A DNA stretch of 64,000 bases from Eledone cirrhosa (Eukaryota): positions 37,634,001 through 37,698,000 of the forward strand of contig OZ024755.1 of assembly GCA_964016885.1 (NCBI GenBank), in the 5' to 3' direction. The notes beneath the pieces are model-generated. The model did no database searches and had not been told where the DNA came from. It saw only the letters and a program-made list of their open reading frames with translations. Positions 7,283-62,526 of this stretch are shown here, one piece after another (positions within the stretch are counted from its first letter, which is position 1; every line of letters begins with the position of its first letter). A program made the position numbers and the translations under genes.

Positions 7283-7388
7283 TATATATATATCTATACA
7301 TATATATACACACACACATATATATAGAAAAGAAAATTTTCGCTCTACATAGAGGAATCTATTATATATATATATATATATATAATAT
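6569..7388. repeat. Compound (CA)n/(TA)n microsatellite
   Basis: Seen directly. Confidence 0.95.
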
Positions 7389-7389
7389 A

Positions 7390-7920
7390 AAAAAATTTCG
7401 CTCTATATGGCTGAATACAATAAATATAATCTGAGTTTTTCGAATATTAATAATAACATTCGATTCGTTTGCAATTATGGAGGCAAGCCTCAATTTTATA
7501 GCCATGTCAGTAGAATGAACACTTCATTCTTGCTCTTGTGTTGGCATGTGAACAGAACTGCAGACACTAATGTTTCTGGGTATCACCCTTCATCAGTACA
7601 GCTCACTGTTCACCTGCCAAACTGTCAGAGCTAGTGAAAATATATGCTAGTTTCAAAAATACACAGTACTGATCGGCCTGATTTACATATTAGCAGACTG
7701 GCTGATCAGTGAGATCTGCATATTAGCAGATCCACTGATGGGCCAGATTTGCATATCAGCAAAGATAGTTTCCAGTTAGTTTCCTGTATACGAGCGATAA
7801 ATGGCTGGCTTTGCCAAATTGAGACTTGCTTGCATAATTGCAAACGAATCGAATTATTAATATTCAAAAAACTCAGATTACATTTATTGTATTCAACCAT
7901 GTAGAGCGAAAATTTTCTCT
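7390..7920. mobile_element. Non-autonomous DNA transposon with ~110-bp terminal inverted repeats, superfamily unassigned
   Basis: aaatttcgctctatatggctgaatacaataaat...gcaagcctcaattt is mirrored at 7816-7918. Confidence 0.7.
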
Positions 7921-12277: not shown

Positions 12278-12720
12278 GGAGGCACATGGCTTAGTGGTTA
12301 GAGCATTGTCCTTGCAATCGAAAGGTTGTGAGTTCAATTCTCAGACTGGGTGATGTGTTGTTTCCTTAAGCAAGACACTTTATTTCACATTGCACCAGTT
12401 TACTCAGCTGTAGAAATGAGATGATAGGGACTAGAGTCCATATCATTCCACTGCAAAGTGGTCGTGGAGGTGCCACGGCCAAAAAGCACTCACCACTCTC
12501 TGTAGAGTGGTCGTGGAGGTGTAACGGCAAAAAAAAAGCACCCAGCACTCACTGTAAAGTGGTCGTGGAGGTGTCACGGCAAAAAAAAGCACCCAGCACT
12601 CACTGTAAATGAGGTTGGTGTTAGGAAGGGCATCCAGCTGTAGAAATCAAACCAGAATCAGTTCCCGTCCCACCCTTGCAAGCAGGGAAAAGCGGACGTA
12701 AAATGAAATGATGATGATGT
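12278..12720 (+). mobile_element. SINE family A, full length, with three copies of the internal ~48-bp unit
   Basis: tRNA-like head ggcttagtggttagagca...ttgcaat...gagttcaattc, CORE-like body, RTE tail. Confidence 0.9.
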
Positions 12721-14858: not shown

Positions 14859-15700
14859 GTTCACATGGCAGTGAGACATGGGCATTGCGTGCAGAGGACC
14901 TGCGCAGACTGGAAAGGAACGAAGCATGCATGCTCCGTTGGATGTGTAATAGTAATATACGTGAACGGCAAAGCATAAATGAACTAAGTGAGAAATTAGG
15001 AATAAGAGGGATCAGATGCTATTTACTTGAGAGAAGACTACATTGGTATGGTCACGTGATGTGTATGAAAGAAGACAGCTGTATAAAAAAGTGCAGGGTG
15101 ATCAAAATTGATCGCCCTGCACTTTTGGTTAAGAGGTGCCTACTGACTGTAGGAGTAGGCAGACCAAGAAAAACCTGGGACGATTTGATAAATTCCGACC
15201 TTACACACTTGCACCTCTCTAAGACAATGTCACTGGACCGAGATCTTTGGTGCTACGCAGTAATACAGAAGACCCGCCTTGCCAATGTACAAAGCAAAAC
15301 CGACAGTTAGTAGGCACCTCTTAACCAAATATACACCCCAATCCACTATCCCTACCCTTTCCTCCCACTCCCAACAACATCACCCTCTCTCTATAAAGTT
15401 GGTACCACAACATTCAGTCCAAATAAATGAGATAATGAGACCGAGATCGTGTAGGTGTCACAAAAAAAAAAACACAGTCCACCCTGTAATGTGGCCGTGT
15501 AGGTAACACGGTAAAAAGTTCCCAGTCCACACTGTAAACATGGTTGGTGTGAGGAAAGGTACCCAACCGTAGAAAACCTGCCAGATAGTCCTATACGAGC
15601 GAGACACAGTCACCCGACCAACCTTGCCTTAAGTGGGTCAACTCCCGTCTAACCCATGCTAGCGAGGAAGATGGACATTAAACGAAGATAATGATGATGA
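14859..15700 (+). mobile_element. RTE LINE 3' fragment followed by a non-autonomous RTE-related element
   Basis: HGSETWAL...RNEACMLRWMC...WYGHV...GRPRKTW; 15460-15700 carries the 48-bp unit and a (GAT)n tail. Confidence 0.8.
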
Positions 15701-15856
15701 TATATATATATATAACCAAAGATTAATATGGTTCCTTGATTACTCAATGAATACAGTTTTACAATAGATTAAAAGCACTCAACAATGTGCCAATACTGCC
15801 AATACTGGAATTAAAATATCAAAACCGTAGTGGTATGTCATATATCAAATCATATA

Positions 15857-15920
15857 TTTTATCTGACGAGGACGTAGTGGGAAAAAACAAACACAGTACC
15901 TTCAAAATATATATAATAAA
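15857..15920 (+). ncRNA. Type I hammerhead ribozyme motif, core decayed (GAAA>AAAA)
   Basis: TTTAT-CTGACGA-stem II-cAAAA-TATATA-TA-ATAAA. Stem I TTTAT/ATAAA; palindromic stem III. Confidence 0.6.
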
Positions 15921-15981
15921 GCATATATTTTGATTATGTGAATGTCTTCATTTGTTAATATTTTGAATATTATATATATAT

Positions 15982-16297
15982 GGAGGCACATGGCTTAGTG
16001 GTATTGGCCTTGTTCAATTCTCAGACCGGGTGATGTGTTGTTTCCTTGAGCAAGACACTTTATTTCACATTGCTCCAGTTTACTCAGCTGTAGAAATGAG
16101 ATGATAGGGACTGGGGTCCCTATCATTCCACTGCAAAGTGGTCGTGCAGGTGCCACGGCAAAAAAGCACCCAGCACTCACTGTAAATGAGGTTGGTGTTA
16201 GGAAGGGCATCCAGCTGTAGAAATCAAGCCAGAATCAGTTCCCGTCCCACCCTTGCAAGCAGAGAAAAAGCGGACGTAAAATGAAATGATGATGATG
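15982..16297 (+). mobile_element. SINE family A with a deletion in the tRNA head
   Basis: Same body and tail as the 12278 copy. Confidence 0.85.
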
Positions 16298-16627
16298 TAT
16301 GTAAAAGGTAAACAGAAATAACAACACAATCGGTAGAGTATATGGAAGGAGCTTTATATATATATATATATAGAATAATGAAATACAAAGTAGTTCAGAT
16401 GTTAAAATTCCTTTATTGAACTAATTTGTATTTCATTATTCTATAAATACTCTGTCATTCCTATGCAGAAATAGAACGTTGAGTTCTTGAATAGTATTGC
16501 ATTGATGTTTTATTGCATATATATATATTAATCATTTTAAAAGGTATCTATATTTGAAGTTCTAGTCAAACTTTAATTAGTTACCTACCTAGCTATGTGT
16601 GCCTACATTCTTTACAAATTATTCCAT

Positions 16628-16837
16628 GATTCTGGCTTGATTTCTACAGCTGGATGACCACTTTGCAGTGGAATGATAGGGACCCAAGCCCCTATCATCT
16701 CATTTCTACAGCTGAGTAAACTTGAGCAATGTGAAATAAAGTGTCTTGCTCAAGGAAACAACACATCACCCGGTCTGAGAATTGAACTCACAACCTTTCG
16801 ATTGCAAGGCCAATGCTCTAACCACTAAGCCATGTGC

Positions 16838-16840
<3 letters not shown>
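16628..16840 (-). mobile_element. SINE family A, internally deleted
   Basis: Reverse complement of head and CORE-like body. Confidence 0.85.
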
Positions 16841-16871
<31 letters not shown>

Positions 16872-16956
16872 ATATATATAACAAAGAAATGTGGTAAGGA
16901 ACTAGGTGGACCATAACGCACCAAAGTACTCAATACTTAGGGTAGTAGAGTGGGTG

Positions 16957-17057
16957 ATAGGAACGAGTAGGACCCCGACGGCTGAGCTCAAGCCGTTTCG
17001 GCGGCTAATTCTGGACGTCGAAACGGCTTGAGCTCAGCCGTCGGGGTCTTACTCGTT

Positions 17058-17062
<5 letters not shown>
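16957..17062. repeat. Inverted repeat with 47-bp arms and a 12-nt loop, each arm carrying the 3' half of a hammerhead
   Basis: ataggaacgagtaggaccccgacggctgagctcaagccgtttcg followed by its reverse complement. Confidence 0.9.
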
Positions 17063-17111
<49 letters not shown>

Positions 17112-17447
17112 AATGAGTATGCCTTATTATACATTATTAACTATAAATTATTATTATTCTTATTCCATTTCTAATTATCTCATGTACTTTCTCCTCCGTT
17201 ATATATATATTGTATGCCCTTTGTGTGTGTGTAGCCTCTGCACACCCTCTACACCCTACTATCAATGCCACCCATCTATGGCTCCACTAACCACTCGACT
17301 CCCGGGAATGAATATGACCGACCCACACCCCACCCTCCCGCACCAAAATTAGATTTATTGTCCCCTGCTTTTGCTCTTTACTCTCTTCACTCTTTGTTCT
17401 TGAATGTTTGGTTGGTAGAGTCCATAACACCAATCAAACCCCTTTTA

Positions 17448-17496
17448 TAGCTCTGAAGAATCCTACGGTTACGTAAGGAAGAAACATTGTAAGCCA
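17448..17496 (+). ncRNA. Type I hammerhead ribozyme motif in a probable Penelope-like terminal repeat
   Basis: GCT-CTGAAGA-aTCCT..AGGAa-GAAA-CATTG-TA-AGC, followed by AATAAA and (TA)n. The stem II closing pair is mismatched. Confidence 0.65.
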
Positions 17497-17539
17497 ATAA
17501 AAAATGTTTGATGTTGTAGACGCTCTTGTGTTCTTTATC

Positions 17540-17584
<45 letters not shown>

Positions 17585-17614
17585 AACAAAAGATGGTTAA
17601 AAGAGTTCCATGTA

Positions 17615-17681
17615 TTTTATTATGCGCATTTCAAAAACAAATATCATCATGCAATAATATTTGTGTTTTCATCAGATAAAA
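17615..17681 (-). ncRNA. Type I hammerhead ribozyme with intact core (mirror copy, on the host pre-mRNA strand)
   Basis: Reverse complement of 17804-17870. Confidence 0.8.
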
Positions 17682-17803
17682 CAGGAGGACATGATATGAA
17701 GGTTAAAAAACACTTGTGGATAGTTCAGTTTTAAATTAACATATGTTGATTTAAAACTGAACTATCCACAAGTGTTTTTTAACCTTCATGTCATGTCCTC
17801 CTG

Positions 17804-17870
17804 TTTTATCTGATGAAAACACAAATATTATTGCATGATGATATTTGTTTTTGAAATGCGCATAATAAAA
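17804..17870 (+). ncRNA. Type I hammerhead ribozyme with intact core
   Basis: Stem I TTTTAT/ATAAAA, CTGATGA at 17810-17816, ~16-bp stem II, GAA, palindromic stem III ATGCGCAT, predicted cleavage after A17864. Confidence 0.8.
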
Positions 17871-17995
17871 TACATGGAACTCTTTTAACCATCTTTTGTT
17901 CTTATATATTATGTATACTCCAGTCCTACAAACTGTAGAGTGCTTCTTATCCGATATCTGCATTGCTTTATTGTACTACAATAAAACTCACCTCC

Positions 17996-18034
<39 letters not shown>

Positions 18035-26300: not shown

Positions 26301-29300
26301 CATCATCATCATCATCATCATCATTTTACGTCCGCTTTTCCTGCTTGCAAGAGTGGGATGGGTTCTATTCAGCACAGCATCTCTCCACTTGTCACGGTCC
26401 TTCGTCATCTCCACCATGAGCTTCAGCGATCTGAGGTCTGCTCTCACCACCTCCGCCCATGTTTTTTGTGGTCTTCCTCTACTACGTCTTCCTTCAACTG
26501 GCATTTCTTGGCACTTCTTCACCCACTGGTCATCCTCCATGCACATCACATGTCCATACCACTGCAGTCTCCTCTCCTGCACACTACAATTTATCCCTCT
26601 CAGACACAGTTTCTCTCTCAACACATCCATGCTTGGCCGTTCATGCACATTGACATTGCACATCCAACGGAGCATGCTTGCCTCATTTCTCTCCAGTCGT
26701 CGCATATCTTCTGCAGTTGCTGCCCAAGTCTCACTACCATGCACTTCACACAGGCATCATATAACCGGCCTTTCATACACAGGGAGAAACCCTTCTTCGT
26801 CAGCAGAGGGAGCAGCTCCCTAAACATCTTCCAACTCGTCCTTATTTTAGATACTATGGCCTCGGAACACCCCATCCCGTGCTAATCTGATCACCTAGGT
26901 ACCGGAAGCTATCAACCACTTCTATAGCACCCACTTGCATTTGAAAAATTTGTCTATCAATGCGACTTTTACTGTCAAATTTCCCTGTACATCTACTGCA
27001 TACATATTTCTCCGTATCTGTTAGTTTGCCTGCTATCCCACTACATCTCTTGTGTACCCAGGATCTGCATTGTGTACATTTTATAGAATTCATGCCAGTT
27101 TCTTTTCTGCATATTGAACATGGCCATTTACCTGACGGAATCAGAGTTTTGTCCTCTTTTCTACTCATCAACACTTTTGTCTTAGCTAGGTTCACTCTCA
27201 GTCCTCTTGATTCCAACTGCTGTTTCCATAGCCAGAATTTATTCTCTAGCTCCTCTAGTGATTCTGCTATAAGAACCAGATCGTCAGCATAGAGAAGTTC
27301 CCATGGACAGCCAATCTTAAACTCCTCTGTTATGGCTTGGAGAACTATAATGAACACGAGTGGGCCGAGGACCGAACCCTGATGTACTCCTACTTGTATC
27401 TGGAATTCCTTACTAAACTCCATTCCTACTCTGACAGCACCTCTGTACAAAGCTTGCATTGTCCTCTCAAGCCATTCCTCAACACCTAGTTTCCTTAGGG
27501 ACCACCAGGTGACAGATAGGGGTACCCTATCAAAGGCCTTCTCTAGGTCAACAAAAGCTAAGTATAGTGGCTTATTCTTCTCTAAGAACCCCTCTTGTAA
27601 TTGTCTCACTAAGAAGAGAGCATCCATTGTACTTTTCCCAGGCACAAAACCAAACTGCATCTCATCTACTTTGACCCTTTCTCTAATTAGTTGTGCTAAT
27701 ATCCTATCTGCCACTTTCATAACCTGATCCATCAGCTTTATGCCCCTATAATTGCTCCTCTCCAGGGCATCCCCTTTACTTTACCTTTGTAGCAATTTAT
27801 AAGAATACTGCTGCACCAGTCTTTGGGTATGACACCGCCATATATAGCCTGATTGATGATGTGTGCAACCAGTTTAGTGCCTACGTCCCCTGATGCCTTC
27901 AGCATCTCAGCAACTATCCCAGACGGTCCAGCGGCCTTACCATTTTTCATTTCCTTAATCACCTCTTGGACCCTATATTTCACAATCTCAATAGCTAGTC
28001 CCTCTGTCGGATCTACTGAGGGTAATTTCTCTCTCTCCCATTCGTTCTCCACATTCATCAGTCTCTCATAATGACATTTCCAGGCCTCCTTTTTCTGATC
28101 ATTCGTGACACTAAGTACACCAGCATCATTCCGGACACATTTATCTCCAACAATATCCTGATTTGCACTGACACACTGCCTTGCAATGCGGAAACCTGCA
28201 TGTCTCTGATCCTCCTACTCTCAGCGTCCCTGCGTGCTAAGTACACCTGATGTCTAGCTTCTCTCTTAGCAGCTGTATATCCTTCTCTACTCCCACCATT
28301 TTTCCAAGCATTCCATGCTAGTTTTTTCTCTCTAACGGCCCTATCTACCGAGCTGTTCCACCACCAGGTCACTCTCCGTTTGGTTGGAGCTCTGCAGTAA
28401 GTTGTCACATAAGAAATTCCAGTTATCATCTATGTCATATGGCTCTAAATCATCTTCTTTTTCGTCATACACATCTTGAAGGGCTTTCCTAAATTTGTCT
28501 TTTAGTGAAAGGTCTTTTAGTTTTCAGACCTTTCTTCTCCACACCTTCCTGTATGTCTCATTCCATCTCTTGCTTACTGAGATATCACTAACGACTAACC
28601 TATGCTGTGGGGTACATTCTTCCCCGGGGTATGCCTTGGTATTTGACACCATCTGCCTGTCCCGCTGCCTATCTACTAAGAAGTCAATCTGGCTTATGTG
28701 CTCGCCTGATCTGGAGGTTATTAGGTGGTTGGCAGGTTTCTGGAAGTTATTGCGGTTGTTTGTAAAAGTTGCCGTAAAAGCAGTCTTTCTCTTCTTTGCC
28801 TAGGCCTGCTTGGGGAGCATAGGCCGAGATGATTGTCAGTAGTCTCCTGCCTACAACTAATCCAAGCTTAATCATTCTATTACTAACTCGAATTACCTCT
28901 ATTGTCTTATTGATCCATCTCTCAGCCAGGAAAATGCCTACTGCCCCTAACCCATCATCATTACCCACCCAGAAAAATAACTAAGATGTTTGCTTGCGAT
29001 TAGTCTCACAGAGGCACCTCTCCATCTCACCTCTTGCACGCAGCACACATCCACATGCCTTCTCTCCAGCATCTCCACTATTACTCCAGATCTACCTGTG
29101 AGAGTGCCAACATTAAGTGTTGCAACTCTGAGATGCGACATCTTCATGTTCTTGTTCCTTTTCCTGTAGTGTGATTGCTTGATCACGGTGTGTGTGTGTA
29201 TGTAGGGGGAGGGGGGTAGGGTTCTCGCACATGGCCTCACCAGCCACCCCACTACCGTGCGCAGCCCTAACATGGTTAGTGTTATTGCTGTTGATGCAGT

Positions 29301-29425
29301 TGTTGCAATTCTCATTTGTTGTGCTCATAGTTTTTGGCAGTAGTATATATACTGGTTGGATGCCCTTCCTAATACCAACACCACTTTACAGCATGGACTG
29401 GGTGCTTTTATTCATGCCACCAGCA
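26301..29425 (-). mobile_element. Near full-length degenerate RTE-clade LINE (5' UTR, APE endonuclease, RT with PHD insert, (GAT)n tail)
   Basis: LRVATLNVGTL...VQEVRW, IISAYAPQ, QFGFVPGKST, FVDLEKAFDRV, GVHQGSVL, LYADDL, FRYLG and HGSETW. Multiple frameshifts and deletions. Confidence 0.95.
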
Positions 29426-34663: not shown

Positions 34664-36362
34664 CTGAAAGTAGAGAAGGTCATTTGATTATTAGGGTTAC
34701 AAAGTTAAAAAAGAAAAGAGAAAGGAAAATAAACAACAACACTTGAGATCTCTCCCCAAACAACAAAGGAGTCTCAATAGTGATGTTCAATCTGCTAGAA
34801 ACAGGAAGGAAATTTTCCTCAAAATGTGAGGAGCCAATTGTCAGATTGGGCCAAGGAAATTATGTTTTCCTTGGTCTTTCCATTACACATACCATCTGTT
34901 AATTACAACAACTGGTAGAATCATCGCCATTTTTCTGGAGACAGGAGGAAGAATTTGAACTCAGAATGCACAGAACCAGAGAAAAGATACTGCAAAGCAT
35001 CTTGTCCAACTTTTCTGCCAATTTTTTGGGAAAGGACTCTGCCACGAGGTCCTGAAAGTTGCAAAGAAATCATGGAGTATGAACAATGAGGAGACACATG
35101 AGAGCACAGGGCTATCATCTGTAAGAGCAGTGGATTGGCAGTCGTTAGGGCAACAGATTGAATAATTTACAGAATTTGTTGAGATACTCTGAGTTCAAAT
35201 CTTGCTGAGGTTAGCTTTGCCATTCATCCTTACAGGGTTGATAAAATAAAGTACCAGTAATGCATTTGTGTTGATTTAATCGACTTTCTTCTCCCTCAAA
35301 ATCAGAAACCAGACTGAAGCCAAGGAGCTAGGTCATATGTTAATGTGACCCAGTGAGGTACATAGTTATTGATAAGGTCACAGGTTGGAACAAAAGAACT
35401 TTGATGGACGAATTATTCTACTGATTAATAAACTAATTATCTTATTGATTGATAAAATTAAACAAAAATACAATCAGTGCATGTGTTTTTTATTGACAAT
35501 ATGACTCTCCCAGAGTACAACAGTATCTGTTTCAACAAATGATTTTACACAAAGAATCTTGCAAAACAAATACAAAAATGAAATATCTAAAAAATGCTTT
35601 AACTGGTTTCAGTCAGGGGTGGGATCAAGTTTGTATAGGGCCCCTGTCTACAGCCTAGGTCGCACCCACCCGTTAATCCATCACTAGTTTCAGTCATTAG
35701 ACTGCAATCGTGCTGGGACACTGATCTATATAACATTTCTGAAATCAGCCCTGTACTCTTTTTCTACAGCGTTCTCTCTAAAAATTTATTGCAGGTTTTT
35801 AAAAGTAATGAAGTGAGAAATATTTATTGTTCTTTGGGCGTATAATGTATTCTCAGTGATATCAAATGTTTTAATGTCCTTATTTTCTGGCATATTTCAT
35901 TATAATTGGCTGTTGATTCAGACATAAGAAACCTCTCATTTCTTCTTCATATTATTGCAAGGAATGTGACAGAAGCTAAACTAAAATCTACAATATATAT
36001 AAAGAGATATTTTAGAGATTATTGTTGTTGCTGTTGTTGTGGAGGTGTTTATATGTTATATGACCCTAGTTGGAAACAATACATGGTGTCTGTGGAATCT
36101 GTATTTAGAAAATATGGGCAACTGTTTTTTACATATCTCCAGTTATAGACACACACCAGTTGAAAACAATAAATCCCCACCCAGCCCTCAAATCAGTGAA
36201 CATTTTTCTAAAGATGGATTTATCTACAATATATCATATTTTTCTATTTTAATTTTTCAAAAGAATATAATTCTTCCCAAACTTTTTGAAAAATTTAGCT
36301 TAAATTTTAACTTAAAAAAATTAGGTGACAAAATTAATTGCATTATGAAAGAGTCATAAAAT

Positions 36363-40158: not shown

Positions 40159-41587
40159 ATCATCATCATTTTACGTCCGATTGTCCCTGCTTGCAAGGGT
40201 GGGATGGGTCGTATTCAGCACAGCATCTCTCCACTTGTCATGGTCCTTCGTCATCTCCACCCTGAGCTTCAGTGATCTGAGGTCTGCTCTCTCCTCCTCC
40301 GCCCATATTTTTCGTGGTCTTCCTCTGCTACAACTTCCTTCAACTGGCATTTCTTGGCACTTCTTCACCCATCGGTCATCCTCCATGCACATCACATGTC
40401 CATACCATTGCAGTCTTCTTTCCTGCACACTACATGCTATCCCTCTCAGAGACAGTTTCTCTCTCAACACATCCATGCTGGGTCATTCACACACATTGAC
40501 ATTGCACATCCAACGGGGCATGCTTGCTTCATTTCTCTCCAGCCATCGCATATCCTCTGCAGTTGCTGCCCATGTCTCACTACCATGCAGCATCGTGCAC
40601 TTCACACAGGCATCATATAACTGGCCTTTCATACGCAGGGAGAAACCCTTCTTCGTCAGCAGAGGGAGCAGCTCCCTAAACTTCTTCCAACACGCCCTTA
40701 TTTTAGATACTCTGGCCTCGGACCCCCACCCCCCCCCCCATGTAAATCTGATCACCTACGTACCGGAAGCTATCAACCACTTCAATAGCACCCACCTGCA
40801 ATTGAAAAATGTGTCTATCAATGCAACTTCTACTGTCAAATTTCCTTGTACATCTACTGCATACATATTTCTCCCTAACTGTTAGTTTGCCTGCTATCCC
40901 GCTACATCTCTTGTGTACCCAGGATCTGCATTGTGTAAATTTTATAGAATTTATGCCAGTTCCTTTTCTGCATGTTGAACATGGCCATTTCCCTGACGGA
41001 ATCAGAGTTTTGTCCTCTTTTCTACTCATCAACACTTTTGTCTTAGCTAGGTTCACTCTCAGTCCTCTTGATTCCAACTGCTGTTTTCATAGCCAGAATT
41101 TATTCTCTAGCTCCTCTACTGATTCTGTTATAAGAACCAGATCGTCAGCATAGAGAAGTTCCCATGGACAGCCAGTCTTAAACACCTCTGTTATGGCTTG
41201 GAGAACTATAATGAACACGAGTGGGCTGAGGACCGAACCCTGATGTACTCCTATTTATATCTGGAATTCTTCACTAAACTCCATTCCTACGCTCACTTTA
41301 CTGACAGCACCTCTGTACAAAGCTTTCACTGTCCTCACAAGCCATTCCTCAACAGCTAGTTTCCTTAGGGACCACCAGATGATAGATTGGGGTATCCTAT
41401 CAAAGGCTTTCTCTAAGTCAACAAAAGCTAAGTATAGTGGATTATTCTTCTTTTTCGTCATACAGATCTTGAAGGGCTTTGCTAAATTTATATTTTAATG
41501 AAAGGTCTTTTAGCTTCCAGACCTTTCTTTTCCGCACCTTCCTGTATGTCTCATTCTTTCTCTTGTTTACTGAGATGTCACTAACGA
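40159..41587 (-). mobile_element. Second copy of the PHD-bearing RTE LINE, 5' truncated and internally deleted
   Basis: High identity to 26301-27580, then a jump near 41450 to the 28455-28595 equivalent. Confidence 0.92.
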
Positions 41588-41789
41588 TATATATATATAT
41601 ATAGGAAAAGAGTCTGGACCCTGATGGCTAGATCCGATTGGTGGTGCGTTATGGTTCACCTGATATCTTACCACACCTTCTTTGTTATATATATATATAT
41701 ATGTAAAAGGTAAACAGAAATAACAACATAATTAGTACAGTATATGGAAGGAATATATTAGGTTAATGCTTGAAATAGTAGGAAGAGGA

Positions 41790-41825
41790 TCTTAACGTTT
41801 TGGACGCTAGTCCTTCATCAGAAGA
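41790..41825 (-). ncRNA. Minimal hammerhead motif (G12>A) in a (TA)n-inserted repeat spanning about 41700-41850
   Basis: Minus strand reads TCTT-CTGATGA-A-GGAC-TAGC-GTCC-AAA-ACGT-T-AAGA. Confidence 0.65.
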
Positions 41826-42192
41826 AAGAATGAGAAATAAGATAGATTGAATGTTGGATTTTCAAATTGGATTTTCACCTTGAAACTGGATATCAACCCG
41901 GAGTATACTTGAACTTCCACCAGGAAATCTTTCGTATCACTGAAATTATCTTTCTTTGCTTCTTTATGTATATATATGTATATATATATAATATATATAT
42001 AAATGAGAGGTATAGAGATTGTTTTAGCAATAAGCTAACGGCATTCTATAACATATATGCGACTATAATATATATATATATATATATATAAATGAAAGTA
42101 CAGCATATTCGAAGCTCGAGCCGCAGCTAAGCCGACGAATTCCTTTAGCAGTGCAGCAAAGCACTCGACAAGGTATAAACCTCAGAGTAATA

Positions 42193-42538
42193 TCATTTCA
42201 TTTTCATTTCATTTCATTTTACATCCGCTTTTCCCTGCTTGCAAGGGTGGGACAGGAACTGATTCTGGCTTGATTTCTACAGCTGGATGCCCTTCCTAAC
42301 ACCAACCTCATTTACAGTGAGTGCTGGGTGCTTTTTTGCCGTTGCACCTCCACGACCACTTTGCAGTGGAATGATAGGGACCCCAGTCCTATCATCTCAT
42401 TTCTACAGCTGAGTAAACTGGAGCAATGTGAAATAAAGTGTCTTGCTCAAGGAAACAACACATCACCCGGTCTGAGAATTGAACCCACAACCTTCCAATT
42501 GCAAGGCCAATGCTCTAACCACTAAGCCATATGCCTCC
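42193..42538 (-). mobile_element. SINE family A, full length
   Basis: Reverse complement of the consensus. Confidence 0.9.
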
Positions 42539-51399: not shown

Positions 51400-53270
51400 A
51401 TTGTAATGAAAGTGTGCTAGACCCTTGATAAAATGTATCCAGTACATGTTTTAAAGTGACAGTGTTGGTGCTGTAATAAAACGTCTCCAGACCAATCTGT
51501 GAAGTGGTAGTGCTGGTCCCACAATAAAAAGCACCCAGTTCACCTTCTATAGTGGTAGTGCTGGTGCCACAATAAAAAGCACCCAGTTCACTTTCTATGG
51601 TGGTAGTGCTGGTGCCACAATAAAAAGCACCCAGTTCACCTTTTATGGTGGTAGTGCTGGTGCCACAATAAAAAGCACCCAGTTCACCTTCTATGGTGGT
51701 AGTGCTGGTGCCACAATAAAAAGCACCCAGTTCACCTTTTATGGTGGTAGTGCTGGTGCCACAATAAAAAGCACCCAGTTCACCTTTTATGGTGGTAGTG
51801 CTGGTGCCACAATAAAAAGCACCCAGTTCACCTTCTATGGTGGTTGTGCTGGTCCCACAATAAAAAAGCACCCAGTTCACTTTCTATGGTGGTAGTGCTG
51901 GTGCCACAATAAAAAGCACCCAGTTCACCTTCTATGGTGGTAGTGCTGGTGCCACAATAAAAAGCACCCAGTTCACCTTTTATGGTGGTAGTGCTGGTCC
52001 CACAATAAAAAGCACCCAGTTCACCTTTTATGGTGGTAGTGCTGGTTCCACAATAAAAAGCACCCAGTTCACCTTTTATGGTGGTAGTGCTGGTTCCACA
52101 ATAAAAAGCACCCAGTTCACCTTCTATGGTGGTAGTGCTGGTGCCACAATAAAAGGCACCCAGTTCACCTTCTATGGTGGTAGTGCTGGTTCCACAATAA
52201 AAAGCACCCAGTTCACTTTTTATGGTTGTAGTGCTGGTCCCACAATAAAAAGCACCCAGTTCACTTTCTATGGTGGTAATGCTGGTCCCACAATAAAAAG
52301 CACCCAGTTCACCTTCTATGGTGGTAGTGCTGGTCCCACAATAAAAAGCACCCAGTTCACCTTTTATGGTGGTAGTGCTGGTCCCACAATAAAAGGCACC
52401 CAGTTCACCTTCTATGGTGGTAGTGCTGGTCCCACAATAAAAAGCACCCAGTTCACTTTCTATGGTGGTAGTGCTGGTCCCACAATAAAAAGCACCCAGT
52501 TCACCTTCTATGGTGGTAGTGCTGGTCCCACAATAAAAAGCACCCAGTTCACCTTCTATGGTGGTAGTGCTGGTGCCACAATAAAAAGCACCCACTTTAC
52601 TTTCTATGGTGGTAGTGCTGGTCCCACAATAAAAAGCACCCAGTTCACCTTCTATGGTGGTAGTGCTGGTGCCACAATAAAAAGCACCCACTTTACTTTC
52701 TATGGTGGTAATGCTGGTCCCACAATAAAAAGCACCCAGTTCACCTTCTATGGTGGTAGTGCTGGTGCCACAATAAAAAGCACCCAGTTCACCTTCTATG
52801 GTGGTAGTGCTGGTGCCACAATAAAAAGCACCCAGTTCACCTTCTATGGTGGTAGTGCTGGTGCCACAATAAAAAGCACCCAGTTCACCTTCTATGGTGG
52901 TTGTGCTGGTCCCACAATAAAAAGCACCCAGTTCACCTTTTATGGTGGTAGTGCTGGTCCCACAATAAAAAGCACCCAGTTCACCTTTTATGGTGGTAGT
53001 GCTGGTCCCACAATAAAAAGCACCCAGTTCACCTTCTATGGTGGTAGTGCTGGTGCCACAATAAAAAGCACCCAGTTCACCTTTTCTGGTGGTAGTGCTG
53101 ATCCCACAATAAAAAGCACCCAGTTTGCACTGTATGGCGATAATGCTGGTGCCAAAGTAAAAAGCTCCCAGTCGACCCTGTAAGGTAATAGTATCAGAGT
53201 CATAATAAAATGCTTCCAGTACATGGTGTAAAGTAGTTGGTGTTAGGAAGGGCATCCATCCATAAAAACC
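51400..53270 (+). repeat. 48-bp minisatellite (~35 homogeneous copies plus diverged flanks) ending in the RTE 5'-UTR motif
   Basis: Unit cacaataaaaagcacccagttcaccttctatggtggtagtgctggtgc; terminates in ttggtgttaggaagggcatcca. Confidence 0.92.
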
Positions 53271-54588: not shown

Positions 54589-54711
54589 CAGAGAAAATCT
54601 TTATATACATATATATATATGTAAAAGGTAAACAGAAATAACAACACAATCGGTACAGTATATGGAAGGAATATATTAGGTTAACACTTGAAATACCTGG
54701 ATGAGAGAGGG

Positions 54712-54747
54712 TCTTAACATTTCGGACGCTAGTCCTTCATCTGAAGA
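54712..54747 (-). ncRNA. Minimal hammerhead motif (two core-region mutations), same repeat family as 41700-41850
   Basis: Minus strand reads TCTT-CAGATGA-A-GGAC-TAGC-GTCC-GAA-ATGT-T-AAGA. Confidence 0.6.
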
Positions 54748-54846
54748 AAGAATGAGAAATAAGATAGATTGAGGGGATGGGCGGGATGGAATTTGAAAAA
54801 ATATCTTTAGATAAAAATAACAGGTTCATTCTATATATATATATAT

Positions 54847-55931: not shown

Positions 55932-56150
55932 GTGAAGGCGTGTGGCTGAGTGGTTAGAGAATTGGATTTGCAATCGAAAGGTTGTGAGTTCGATTCCTGG
56001 ACCAGGCGATGCGTTATGTCCTTGAGCAAGACACTTTATTTCACGTTGCTCCTTCTACCTGGAGTGGCGACCGATAGATAGTATTAGCAATTGGAAAGAC
56101 CAACGGAAACATTGTTCCCTCGGTCCGATTTGACGAAGGTCGATCGTTCC
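55932..56150 (+). mobile_element. SINE family A-related variant with a different 3' segment
   Basis: tRNA head and start of the CORE-like body, then an unrelated ~100-bp tail ending at (TA)n. Confidence 0.7.
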
Positions 56151-56349
56151 TATATATATATAGAGAGAGAGAGAGACGGGGGTGGACAGAGGGAATATAG
56201 GGCCTAAGAGGGCTCTTCTATCTGGATGATGATATAATACAACATTTACAGTCCATCCAGTAAAGTAGTAATGTTGGTGCCATAATAAATTTTACCCAGT
56301 ACACCAAGTAAGGTGGTTGGCATTAGGAACAACAGAGGGGGCAGGGTTC

Positions 56350-61349: not shown

Positions 61350-62526
61350 GATGACACAACAAAAAGGCTCCCAGTCCACACTGTAAAGTGGTGTAAAAGG
61401 CACGGTAAAAAGGCTCCCAGTCCACACTGTAAGGTGGTCATGTAGGAGACATGGTAAAAAGGCTCCCAGTCCACACTGTAAAGTGGTGTAAGAGGCACAG
61501 TAAAAAGGCTCCCAGTCCACACTGTAAGGTGGTCATGTAGGAGACATGGTAAAAAGGCTCCCAGTCCACACTGTAAGGTGGTCGTGTAGGAGACACAGTA
61601 AAAAGGCTCCCAGTCCACACTGTAAAGGTGGTTGTGTAGGAGACACGATAAAAAGGCTCCCAGTCCACACTGTAAAGGTGGTTGTGTAGGAGACACGATA
61701 AAAAGGCTCCCAGTCCACACTGTAAGGTGGTCGTGTAGGAGACACGGTAAAAAGGCTCCCAGTCCACACTGTATGGTGGTCGTGTAGGAGACACGGTAAA
61801 AAGGCTCCCAGCCCACACTGTAAAGTGGTCATGTAGGAGACACGGTAAAAAGGCTCCCAGTCCACACTGTAAGGTGGTCATGTAGGAGACACGGTAAAAA
61901 GGCTCCCAGTCCACACTGTAAAGGTGGTCGTGTAGAGACACAGTAAAAAGGCTCCCAGTCCACACTGTAAAGTGGTCATGTAGGAGACACGGTAAAAAGG
62001 CTCCCAGTCCACACTGTAAAGGTGGTCGTGTAGAGACACAGTAAAAAGGCTCCCAGTCCACACTGTAAAGGTGGTTGTGTAGGAGACACGGTAAAAAGGT
62101 TCCCAGTCCACACTGTAAGGTGGTCGTGTAGGAGACACAGTAAAAAGGCTCCCAGTCCACACTGTAAAGGTGGTCGTGTAGAGACACAGTAAAAAGGCTC
62201 CCAGTCCACACTGTAAGGTGGTCGTGTAGGAGACACGGTAAAAAGGCTCCCAGTCCACACTGTATGGTGGTCATGTAGGAGACACGGTAAAAAGACTCCC
62301 AGTTCACACTGTAAAGTGGTCATGTAGGAGACACAGTAAAAAGGCTCCCAGTCCACACTGTAAAGGTGGTTGGTGTTAGGAAGGGCATCCAGCCGTAAAA
62401 AACCTGCAGAGAGACACTTCCATACAAGCAAGACACGGTCTTCCGACCAATCCTGCATAAAATGGAACAAAATCGTCTAATCCTTGCTAGTGTGGAAGAT
62501 TGACGTTAAACAATGATGATGATGAT
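61350..62526 (+). mobile_element. Non-autonomous RTE-related element with a ~48-bp array (~21 copies) and (GAT)n tail
   Basis: Unit aaaaaggctcccagtccacactgtaaggtggtcgtgtaggagacacggt, then ttaggaagggcatccagccgta. Confidence 0.85.

Follow-up and report, generated by a model that had tools for sequence, protein, structure and literature searches.

The cluster at 15857-17870 of the 64-kb window (the whole stretch of DNA analysed here) is very likely a nest of independent 3′-end (pseudo-LTR) insertions, in which at least five repeat families moved by the machinery of Penelope-like elements (PLEs) have gathered, together with two tRNA SINEs, inside an intron. The nest combines hammerhead ribozyme motifs and highly repeated modules with a 3′ polarity toward (TA)n tracts and with inverted units that carry a tail on one side (Table 1). 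Going by the joint presence of hammerheads and a microsatellite bias, the clade involved would most likely be Neptune-like.

Table 1. Features of the nest, its host gene and the hammerhead motifs found elsewhere in the window
Feature	Positions	Strand	Remarks
RAP1GDS1-like exons	34663-34568, 6098-5967, 4879-4754, 1141-995	-	From homology and splice signals
Host intron	6099-34567	-	28.5 kb, RAP1GDS1/SmgGDS-like gene, between the first two of four exons
7555 motif	7555-7604	-	Intact-core hammerhead; same intron, outside the cluster, sense to host; top score with the relaxed descriptor
(TA)7 tract	15700-15714		5′ side of the M1 module
M1 module	15715-15970	+	256 bp between two TA tracts; decayed type I hammerhead 15857-15921
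tRNA-headed SINE copy	15982-16297	+	Begins at (TA)5; not a ribozyme element; family has 10 heads in the window, Rfam tRNA match on other copies
Solo 3′ tail of family F5	16301-16350	-	92% to 41703-41752; starts just after the internal ATATAT motif of F5
Older inverted unit	16373-16516	+	Arms of ~25 bp (16373-16397, 16417-16441), internal TATA, 75-nt tail ending in (TA)6
Second tRNA-SINE copy	16647-16841	-	Partial; followed by (CT)n and (TA)6
M2 unit	16881-17059	-	76-nt tail (16881-16956) and body (16957-17016), head to head with a tail-less inverted copy (17017-17059)
(TA)25 tract	17060-17109		Abuts the tail-less copy end of the M2 unit
M3 module	17110-17545	+	Ends in (TA)18; intact-core minimal type I hammerhead 17450-17494
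(TA)18 tract	17546-17582		Common to the 3′ ends of M3 and M4
M4	17583-17742	-	Inverted M5 copy without a tail; intact-core hammerhead 17613-17683, sense to host pre-mRNA
M5	17743-17998	+	Body 17743-17905, internal TATATAT, then ~90-nt tail (far end approximate, (AG)14 next); intact-core hammerhead 17802-17872
F5 hammerhead, copy a	41790-41825	-	GAAA read as AAAA
F5 hammerhead, copy b	54712-54747	-	CTGATGA read as CAGATGA

Hammerhead motifs in the window

A strict type I hammerhead descriptor matched the window twice (M4 and M5), compared with 0.03-0.08 matches per window in a control of 100 block-wise dinucleotide shuffles. A relaxed descriptor in which one core change is tolerated gave eight matches in the 64 kb, seven of them with a score of at least 12, whereas 30 shuffles averaged 0.43 matches at that score; because it was devised after the strict version had missed M3, it is partly tuned to these motifs. 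Four of the seven (M1, M3, M4 and M5) lie within the cluster and three elsewhere (7555-7604, 41790-41825 and 54712-54747, all on the minus strand). The hammerhead motifs are real and above chance, and the rate of shuffled sequence, which the first-pass annotation had named as the outcome that would tell against its reading, was clearly surpassed (7 versus 0.43). With seven motifs in 64 kb, hammerheads are likely to be very dense in this genome.

A complete core, consisting of CUGANGA, GAAA and UH together with helices I-III, is present in M3, M4, M5 and the 7555 motif; M1 and both F5 copies carry one core change each, the two F5 copies being broken at different positions. Folding places a long interrupted helix I around each core. 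Helix III, as read from the relaxed-descriptor matches, is self-complementary or nearly so in all five hammerhead types. The G10.1-C11.1 pair is found in F5 and is absent from M3 and M5, and an extra base between positions 9 and 10.1 occurs in F5, M3 and the 7555 motif. Among the Rfam matches listed (150 of 193 for the whole window, all 68 for the region and the single one for M2) there was no hammerhead family; matches to miRNA and plastid families were dismissed as hairpin artefacts.

In M1 the CTGACGA box is intact and helix III palindromic, and AAAA stands in place of GAAA, meaning that G12 is lost. No second M1 copy occurs within the 64-kb window. Kinship of M1 with F5 (z=4.3 versus mononucleotide shuffles) was considered and not accepted, the alignment being very gappy. 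The M3 hammerhead has a near-palindromic helix III and a predicted cut after 17491, and the majority of reads differ from it at 17457, which is the free core position N7. M5 has an 8-nt palindromic helix III, whose segment pairs between two copies in a predicted cofold, and a helix II of 35 nt. Seven read variants fall on the folded M5 region among the 40 of 128 listed: the five located in helices all keep pairing, two are unpaired and none affects the core. This test is weak because it covers 40 of 128 variants and because, for transitions, five out of five would come up by chance about once in 32 times.

The arms 17576-17742 and 17743-17909 form a 167-bp inverted repeat with 99% complementarity. 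As M4 and M5 are thus two arms of one inverted repeat, they represent one family and one insertion event. All five features reported in the first-pass annotation exist at the places given for them, M2 as a palindrome at 16957-17062, and its statement that they have different stems agrees with the lack of any likeness beyond the core between M1, M3, M5 and the 7555 motif (pairwise local alignment, z ≤1.2). Taken as five separate ribozyme motifs, however, the features are overcounted: M4 and M5 share family and insertion, and the cluster holds three independent hammerheads, namely M3, M4/M5 (one element) and M1 with its lost G12.

M2 is unsupported as a ribozyme. GAAA, GTC and a hairpin resembling helix III are present, but CTGANGA was found neither within hundreds of bases on either strand of the window nor in 30 upstream family letters taken from reads, and a comparison of 16881-17022 with Rfam twister and HDV-like models gave no match to them (one unrelated match, E 2.2). 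M2 belongs to the same kind of insertion as the others; its status as a ribozyme is putative and unproven, and a longer helix II is possible. A segment at 56053-56151 likewise abuts TA, has GAAA and a helix III-like segment and has a 3′ end similar to that of M2. It has a 70% relative at 34840-34920; no first core box was seen in this segment, and none is supplied by the relative.

Most motifs had also been described as followed by AATAAA. This holds for M1, M3, M4 and M5, but AATAAA there is the 3′ strand of helix I, and none of the three motifs outside the cluster is followed by it. As an independent poly(A) signal it was therefore rejected as a general feature. AATAAA straddles the predicted cut site in M1, M4 and M5 and lies 5 nt past the cut in M3. 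In the first three the predicted cut (15915 in M1, 17621 in M4, 17864 in M5) is located inside AAUAAA, after its first A, so that a possible poly(A) signal in the element RNA would be lost on cutting.

TA tracts and insertion anatomy

That each motif lies within about 70 bp of a TA tract is correct for M1, M3 and M4, whose cut sites are 56, 55 and 39 nt away from (TA)5 or longer, and for M2, which abuts (TA)25; M5, however, has just (TA)3 at 39 nt. The association is polar, as the tracts lie on the 3′ side of the hammerhead. At five of six independent loci (TA)5 or longer starts within 100 nt 3′ of the cut (39-96 nt), and at all six within 200 nt, compared with a background of 5-9% and 9-13% of window positions, respectively. 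The proposed enrichment next to (TA)n is thus borne out within the window. The term hotspot is not: with uniform placement, finding three of six independent loci in 2.05 kb has P=0.053, and a draw from the 28 isolated TA tracts raises this to 0.33.

Hammerhead elements are not alone in lying next to TA, because tRNA SINEs do so as well: of 10 heads, 3 begin directly at (TA)n and 2 more within ~30 nt. SINE heads with (TA)n at or near the 5′ end are seen at 15982, 42538, 54847, 55934 and 16841. Other repeats of the window include minisatellites of 48-52 bp (118-487, 12449-12609, 51504-53172 and 61361-62370), apparently amplified from one internal segment common to SINE-like repeats, and a decayed LINE with endonuclease, reverse transcriptase and PHD finger at 26857-29324, further fragments of which lie elsewhere in the window.

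Four units share a lopsided anatomy: two inverted copies meet head to head, and just one of the outer ends carries a 3′ tail. Besides the M2 and M4-M5 units these are 16373-16516, in which no hammerhead was seen, and 41604-41685, both recognized by their sequence. The latter is a relative of M2, whose family occurs twice in the window. F5 is present three times (41703-41850, 54621-54772 and the stub 16301-16350), the stub being a tail alone. Around 41587-42200 a second TA-tract nest is visible, comprising an M2-family inverted unit with an internal deletion and a partial tail, an F5 hammerhead copy, a TA-flanked module and a SINE. Head-to-tail tandem hammerhead units were not found within the window.

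Sequencing reads show ends with and without the tail. In the M2 family 8153+3199 raw reads span 16956, where ~244 read starts carry the family letter, which shows tail and body to be joined without a break in this family; in 3393 reads (TA)n stands directly at 16957, which is the tail-less end. Of 1884 raw reads at 17903 in the M5 family, 1189 continue into the tail; 52 contigs of run X1 enter (TA)n there instead. Since some reads cross the tail boundary and others pass into (TA)n there, each of the two families has two alternative 3′ ends. Past 17016, reads of the M2 family agree for ~15 letters and then scatter (agreement 0.45-0.5), with some joints returning to 17741-17743. The Penelope-type origin suggested in the first-pass annotation gains from these data, which show four inverted units tailed on one side, a choice of two 3′ ends in the M2 as well as the M5 family, and 5′ truncation accompanied by an inverted partner, all as expected of PLE insertions.

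In the four families in which it can be seen, the boundary of the tail falls on a short TA motif inside the element, TATATAT in M5, TAT in M2, ATATAT in F5 and TATA in the 16373 unit, although short TA motifs arise easily in AT-rich DNA beside a TA tract and blur the boundary. The presence of such a motif at tail-less ends suggests that synthesis may be primed by pairing with the target.

Repetition of the modules

Four of 23 listed sequencing runs were compared with 16850-17998 at 80% likeness; M1 lies outside that stretch. Matches comprised 17585 contigs in run X1, 28366 reads in run X21 and 11 mostly short pieces in run X7, the last of which carry no weight here. Words shared with the remaining small-share runs may stem from the SINE and do not count as evidence. 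Summed contig depth in run X1 was 1.2-3.0 × 10⁶ for the M2 unit, 3.6 × 10³ to 6.9 × 10⁴ for the M3 module and 1.8 × 10⁵ to 1.6 × 10⁶ for M4/M5. Relative to the median depth of eight listed pieces (7-25), this corresponds to ~10⁵ for M2, 10³-10⁴ for M3 and 10⁴-10⁵ for M4/M5, ratios that are orders of magnitude and no copy numbers. The M2, M3 and M4/M5 modules are highly repeated. Single-copy flanks, the second outcome named as adverse in the first-pass annotation, are thereby excluded for 16850-17998.

Within M3 the summed depth rises about twentyfold, from 3.6 × 10³ at the 5′ side to 5-7 × 10⁴ near the hammerhead (run X1), as expected of 5′-truncated retrocopies. A second organism (run X5, 98 contigs) has relatives of the M2, M3 and M4/M5 modules. 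One of its contigs spans 17881-17998. Another, of 468 bp, covers most of M3 (17147-17530) including an internal (TA)5 and represents either the orthologous locus or another copy of the family. Two metagenome pattern scans gave no match; metagenomes are uninformative for an animal repeat.

The host gene

The nest is intronic, as the first-pass annotation had assumed, and lies in the large intron of a RAP1GDS1-like gene (Table 1). A protein search with a single exon gave no match, and a full scan then identified the gene. The two downstream exons are supported by tblastn of homologues (E down to 1e-13), and homologue P0058 matches solved SmgGDS with an E value of 2e-105. The two upstream exons have weak HMM matches (E 0.02 and 0.09), AG/GT ends, the correct order and lengths divisible by three. 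M1, M3 and M5 are antisense to this gene, and M4 and the 7555 motif are sense, M4 coming after its own complement. A role of the nest for the host gene is unlikely.

For the 7555 motif a fold that pairs its core is favoured (-36.4 versus -30.2). Near the middle of 7327-7920, a ~590-bp element with imperfect terminal inverted repeats of ~110 bp, this motif belongs either to a hammerhead element that sits within a MITE or to an inverted PLE pair of some age.

Proposed mechanism and alternative explanations

The enzyme, the priming steps and the ribozyme activity invoked here are modelled on published PLE biology. The GIY-YIG endonuclease of a PLE protein would nick a (TA)n tract, and reverse transcription on the element RNA would be primed at one of two sites, either at the far 3′ end, which would yield a tail, or 40-55 nt past the hammerhead, which would yield a tail-less end. 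Synthesis would usually stop early, leaving stubs of 50-450 bp. If both target strands are used, two cDNAs would be joined head to head and form an inverted pair tailed at a single end. With every insertion, TA tracts would be left on both sides and thereby new targets, so that nests accumulate. The hammerhead would be a pseudo-LTR passenger of the minimal type I with a palindromic helix III, whose cutting should need a second copy or the PLE protein. The copies present here are probably inert because M1 is without G12, because M1, M3 and M5 run opposite to the host transcript and because M4 is predicted to be locked in the 167-bp hairpin with M5 (163 pairs, -255.8 kcal/mol versus about -20 per single arm).

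With rather more doubt than confidence, we further propose that several TA-targeting PLE families of this animal might start reverse transcription at an internal UA or UAUA motif that pairs with the nicked (TA)n and gives the tail-less end, that a second start 50-90 nt further 3′ might give the tail, and that the cDNAs from each target strand might then join head to head. Initiation inside the element would then be assisted by homology, in contrast to the non-homologous start measured in the Anolis element. Some families may, in addition, be dedicated non-coding elements of 150-260 nt with 10⁴-10⁵ copies that are filed as unclassified SINEs or unknown repeats. If true, an internal TA priming site would make sense of two traits of TA-targeting PLEs, their microsatellite bias and their tail.

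Some observations count against PLE-driven insertion. The tails of ~50-90 nt exceed the 30-40 bp described, M3 and M5 are without the G10.1-C11.1 pair, and Rfam gave no hammerhead match. A scan of 150 of the 437 open frames against Pfam yielded no GIY-YIG match; four RVT_1 matches among these frames lie far from the hammerhead motifs and are read as LINE pieces.

The alternative that fares best is a variant of this reading and is the version given in the first-pass annotation. Here some families (M2 and M4/M5) would not be truncated ends of coding elements; a PLE would carry them in trans as short non-autonomous elements in their own right or as solo retrozyme monomers with a fixed length. We regard it as plausible, though short of an even chance. 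Non-autonomous PLE derivatives are on record (PMC8557442; bioRxiv 2026.07.22.740005). The very high depth of M2 and M4/M5, up to ~10⁵ times that of single contigs, is in line with this model, and a fixed 5′ end would explain the scatter past 17016 as well as the joints back to 17741-17743; a steep truncation, however, would give the same scatter, and M3 shows a 5′ truncation gradient of about twentyfold. Against retrozyme monomers speaks the lack of a tandem hammerhead unit in the window, the tandem being their defining form.

The palindromic units could also be taken for Tc1/mariner-type MITEs with hammerheads as captured passengers. TA is the target of Tc1/mariner, and the near-perfect inverted arms do end at TA. 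We consider this improbable, since reads show the arms joined at variable points in other copies instead of fixed terminal inverted repeats with a TA duplication; one end is tailed in all four units, single-arm copies exist (F5 and M3) and two family ends alternate. Still less credible is the idea that the host has selected the motifs as intronic ribozymes for regulating its RAP1GDS1-like pre-mRNA: two motifs with an intact core (M4 and 7555-7604) are sense to the transcript, but every module compared with reads (M2, M3 and M4/M5) is a high-copy repeat, M4 folds with M5, the 7555 motif prefers the fold that pairs its core and three of the four cluster motifs are antisense. Chance matches in AT-rich sequence are the least probable explanation of all, because despite a relaxed descriptor tuned after the motifs had been seen, the absence of an Rfam match and the failure of M1 and M2 in the core, the shuffle counts, the long interrupted helix I around each core and the repetition refute it for M3-M5, with the M2 half motif as the exception.

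The one-sided-tail inversions have a practical use as clean natural records of PLE integration.

Comparison with known systems

Published work already covers hammerheads in PLEs as well as their (TA)n bias, tails and inversions, and what is probably new here are the families. Minimal hammerheads of metazoan PLEs are described as widespread, with many families per genome and thousands of copies, mostly solitary and some close together on opposite strands, a self-complementary helix III being their mark (Cervera and de la Pena 2014, PMC4209133). The motifs of the window resemble them in being of type I, in the short palindromic helix III and in the extra base between 9 and 10.1. They deviate in that M3 and M5 lack G10.1-C11.1, that M5 has a helix II of 35 nt and that no flanking ORF is found here. 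In its accessible part, that account of PLE hammerheads mentions neither cephalopods nor TA tracts.

Animal non-LTR retrozymes (PMC7229834; bioRxiv 10.64898/2026.07.22.740005) are likewise short, non-coding, PLE-related and equipped with a type I hammerhead, and solo monomers have been described. Retrozymes form head-to-tail tandems with a hammerhead in each unit (PMC7229834), whereas the modules studied here are not tandem.

In Octopus vulgaris PLEs make up 6.83% of the genome in 190 families, next to 1279 unclassified SINE families and 15% unknown repeats (PMC13282606, Supplementary Table 1). The notion of a large unannotated component of octopod introns was therefore overstated in the first-pass annotation. 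That supplement contains neither the word ribozyme nor the word hammerhead, and no study of cephalopod hammerheads was found in the literature, as judged by titles and the beginnings of abstracts and mostly outside subscription papers. The hammerhead-bearing families are probably new to the catalogue for this animal. One point, the internal TA motif at the tail boundary, goes beyond the published accounts consulted; it rests on four families in one window.

Endonuclease-bearing PLEs are reported to show truncation, inverted partners and one-sided tails, with (TA)n as a preferred target (Craig et al. 2021, PMC8557442). The units of the nest share with Neptune and Naiad insertions (Fig. 2 of the same paper) the 5′ truncation, the inverted 5′-truncated partner, the tail on one end and the microsatellite bias, but their tails, at ~50-90 nt, are longer than the 30-40 bp given there. 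Naiads, which in that text are without canonical hammerheads and described as remnants in cephalopods, also differ from the units here, some of which carry hammerheads.

Two alternative 3′ ends are regarded as a signature common and unique to PLEs, and in Anolis Poseidon PAc the tail reflects two starts of reverse transcription (Frangieh et al. 2024, PMC11167929). The ribozyme of PAc is protein-assisted and dispensable for insertion in vitro, and the integration steps that follow first-strand synthesis are still unvalidated according to this work. As proposed for the families described here, two start sites bound the tail downstream of the hammerhead in PAc, which cuts and extends both target strands. 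By contrast, PAc starts at RNA sites that are non-homologous to the cut DNA and prefers ATT, whereas the tail-less end in the present families falls on an internal TA motif that matches the (TA)n target.
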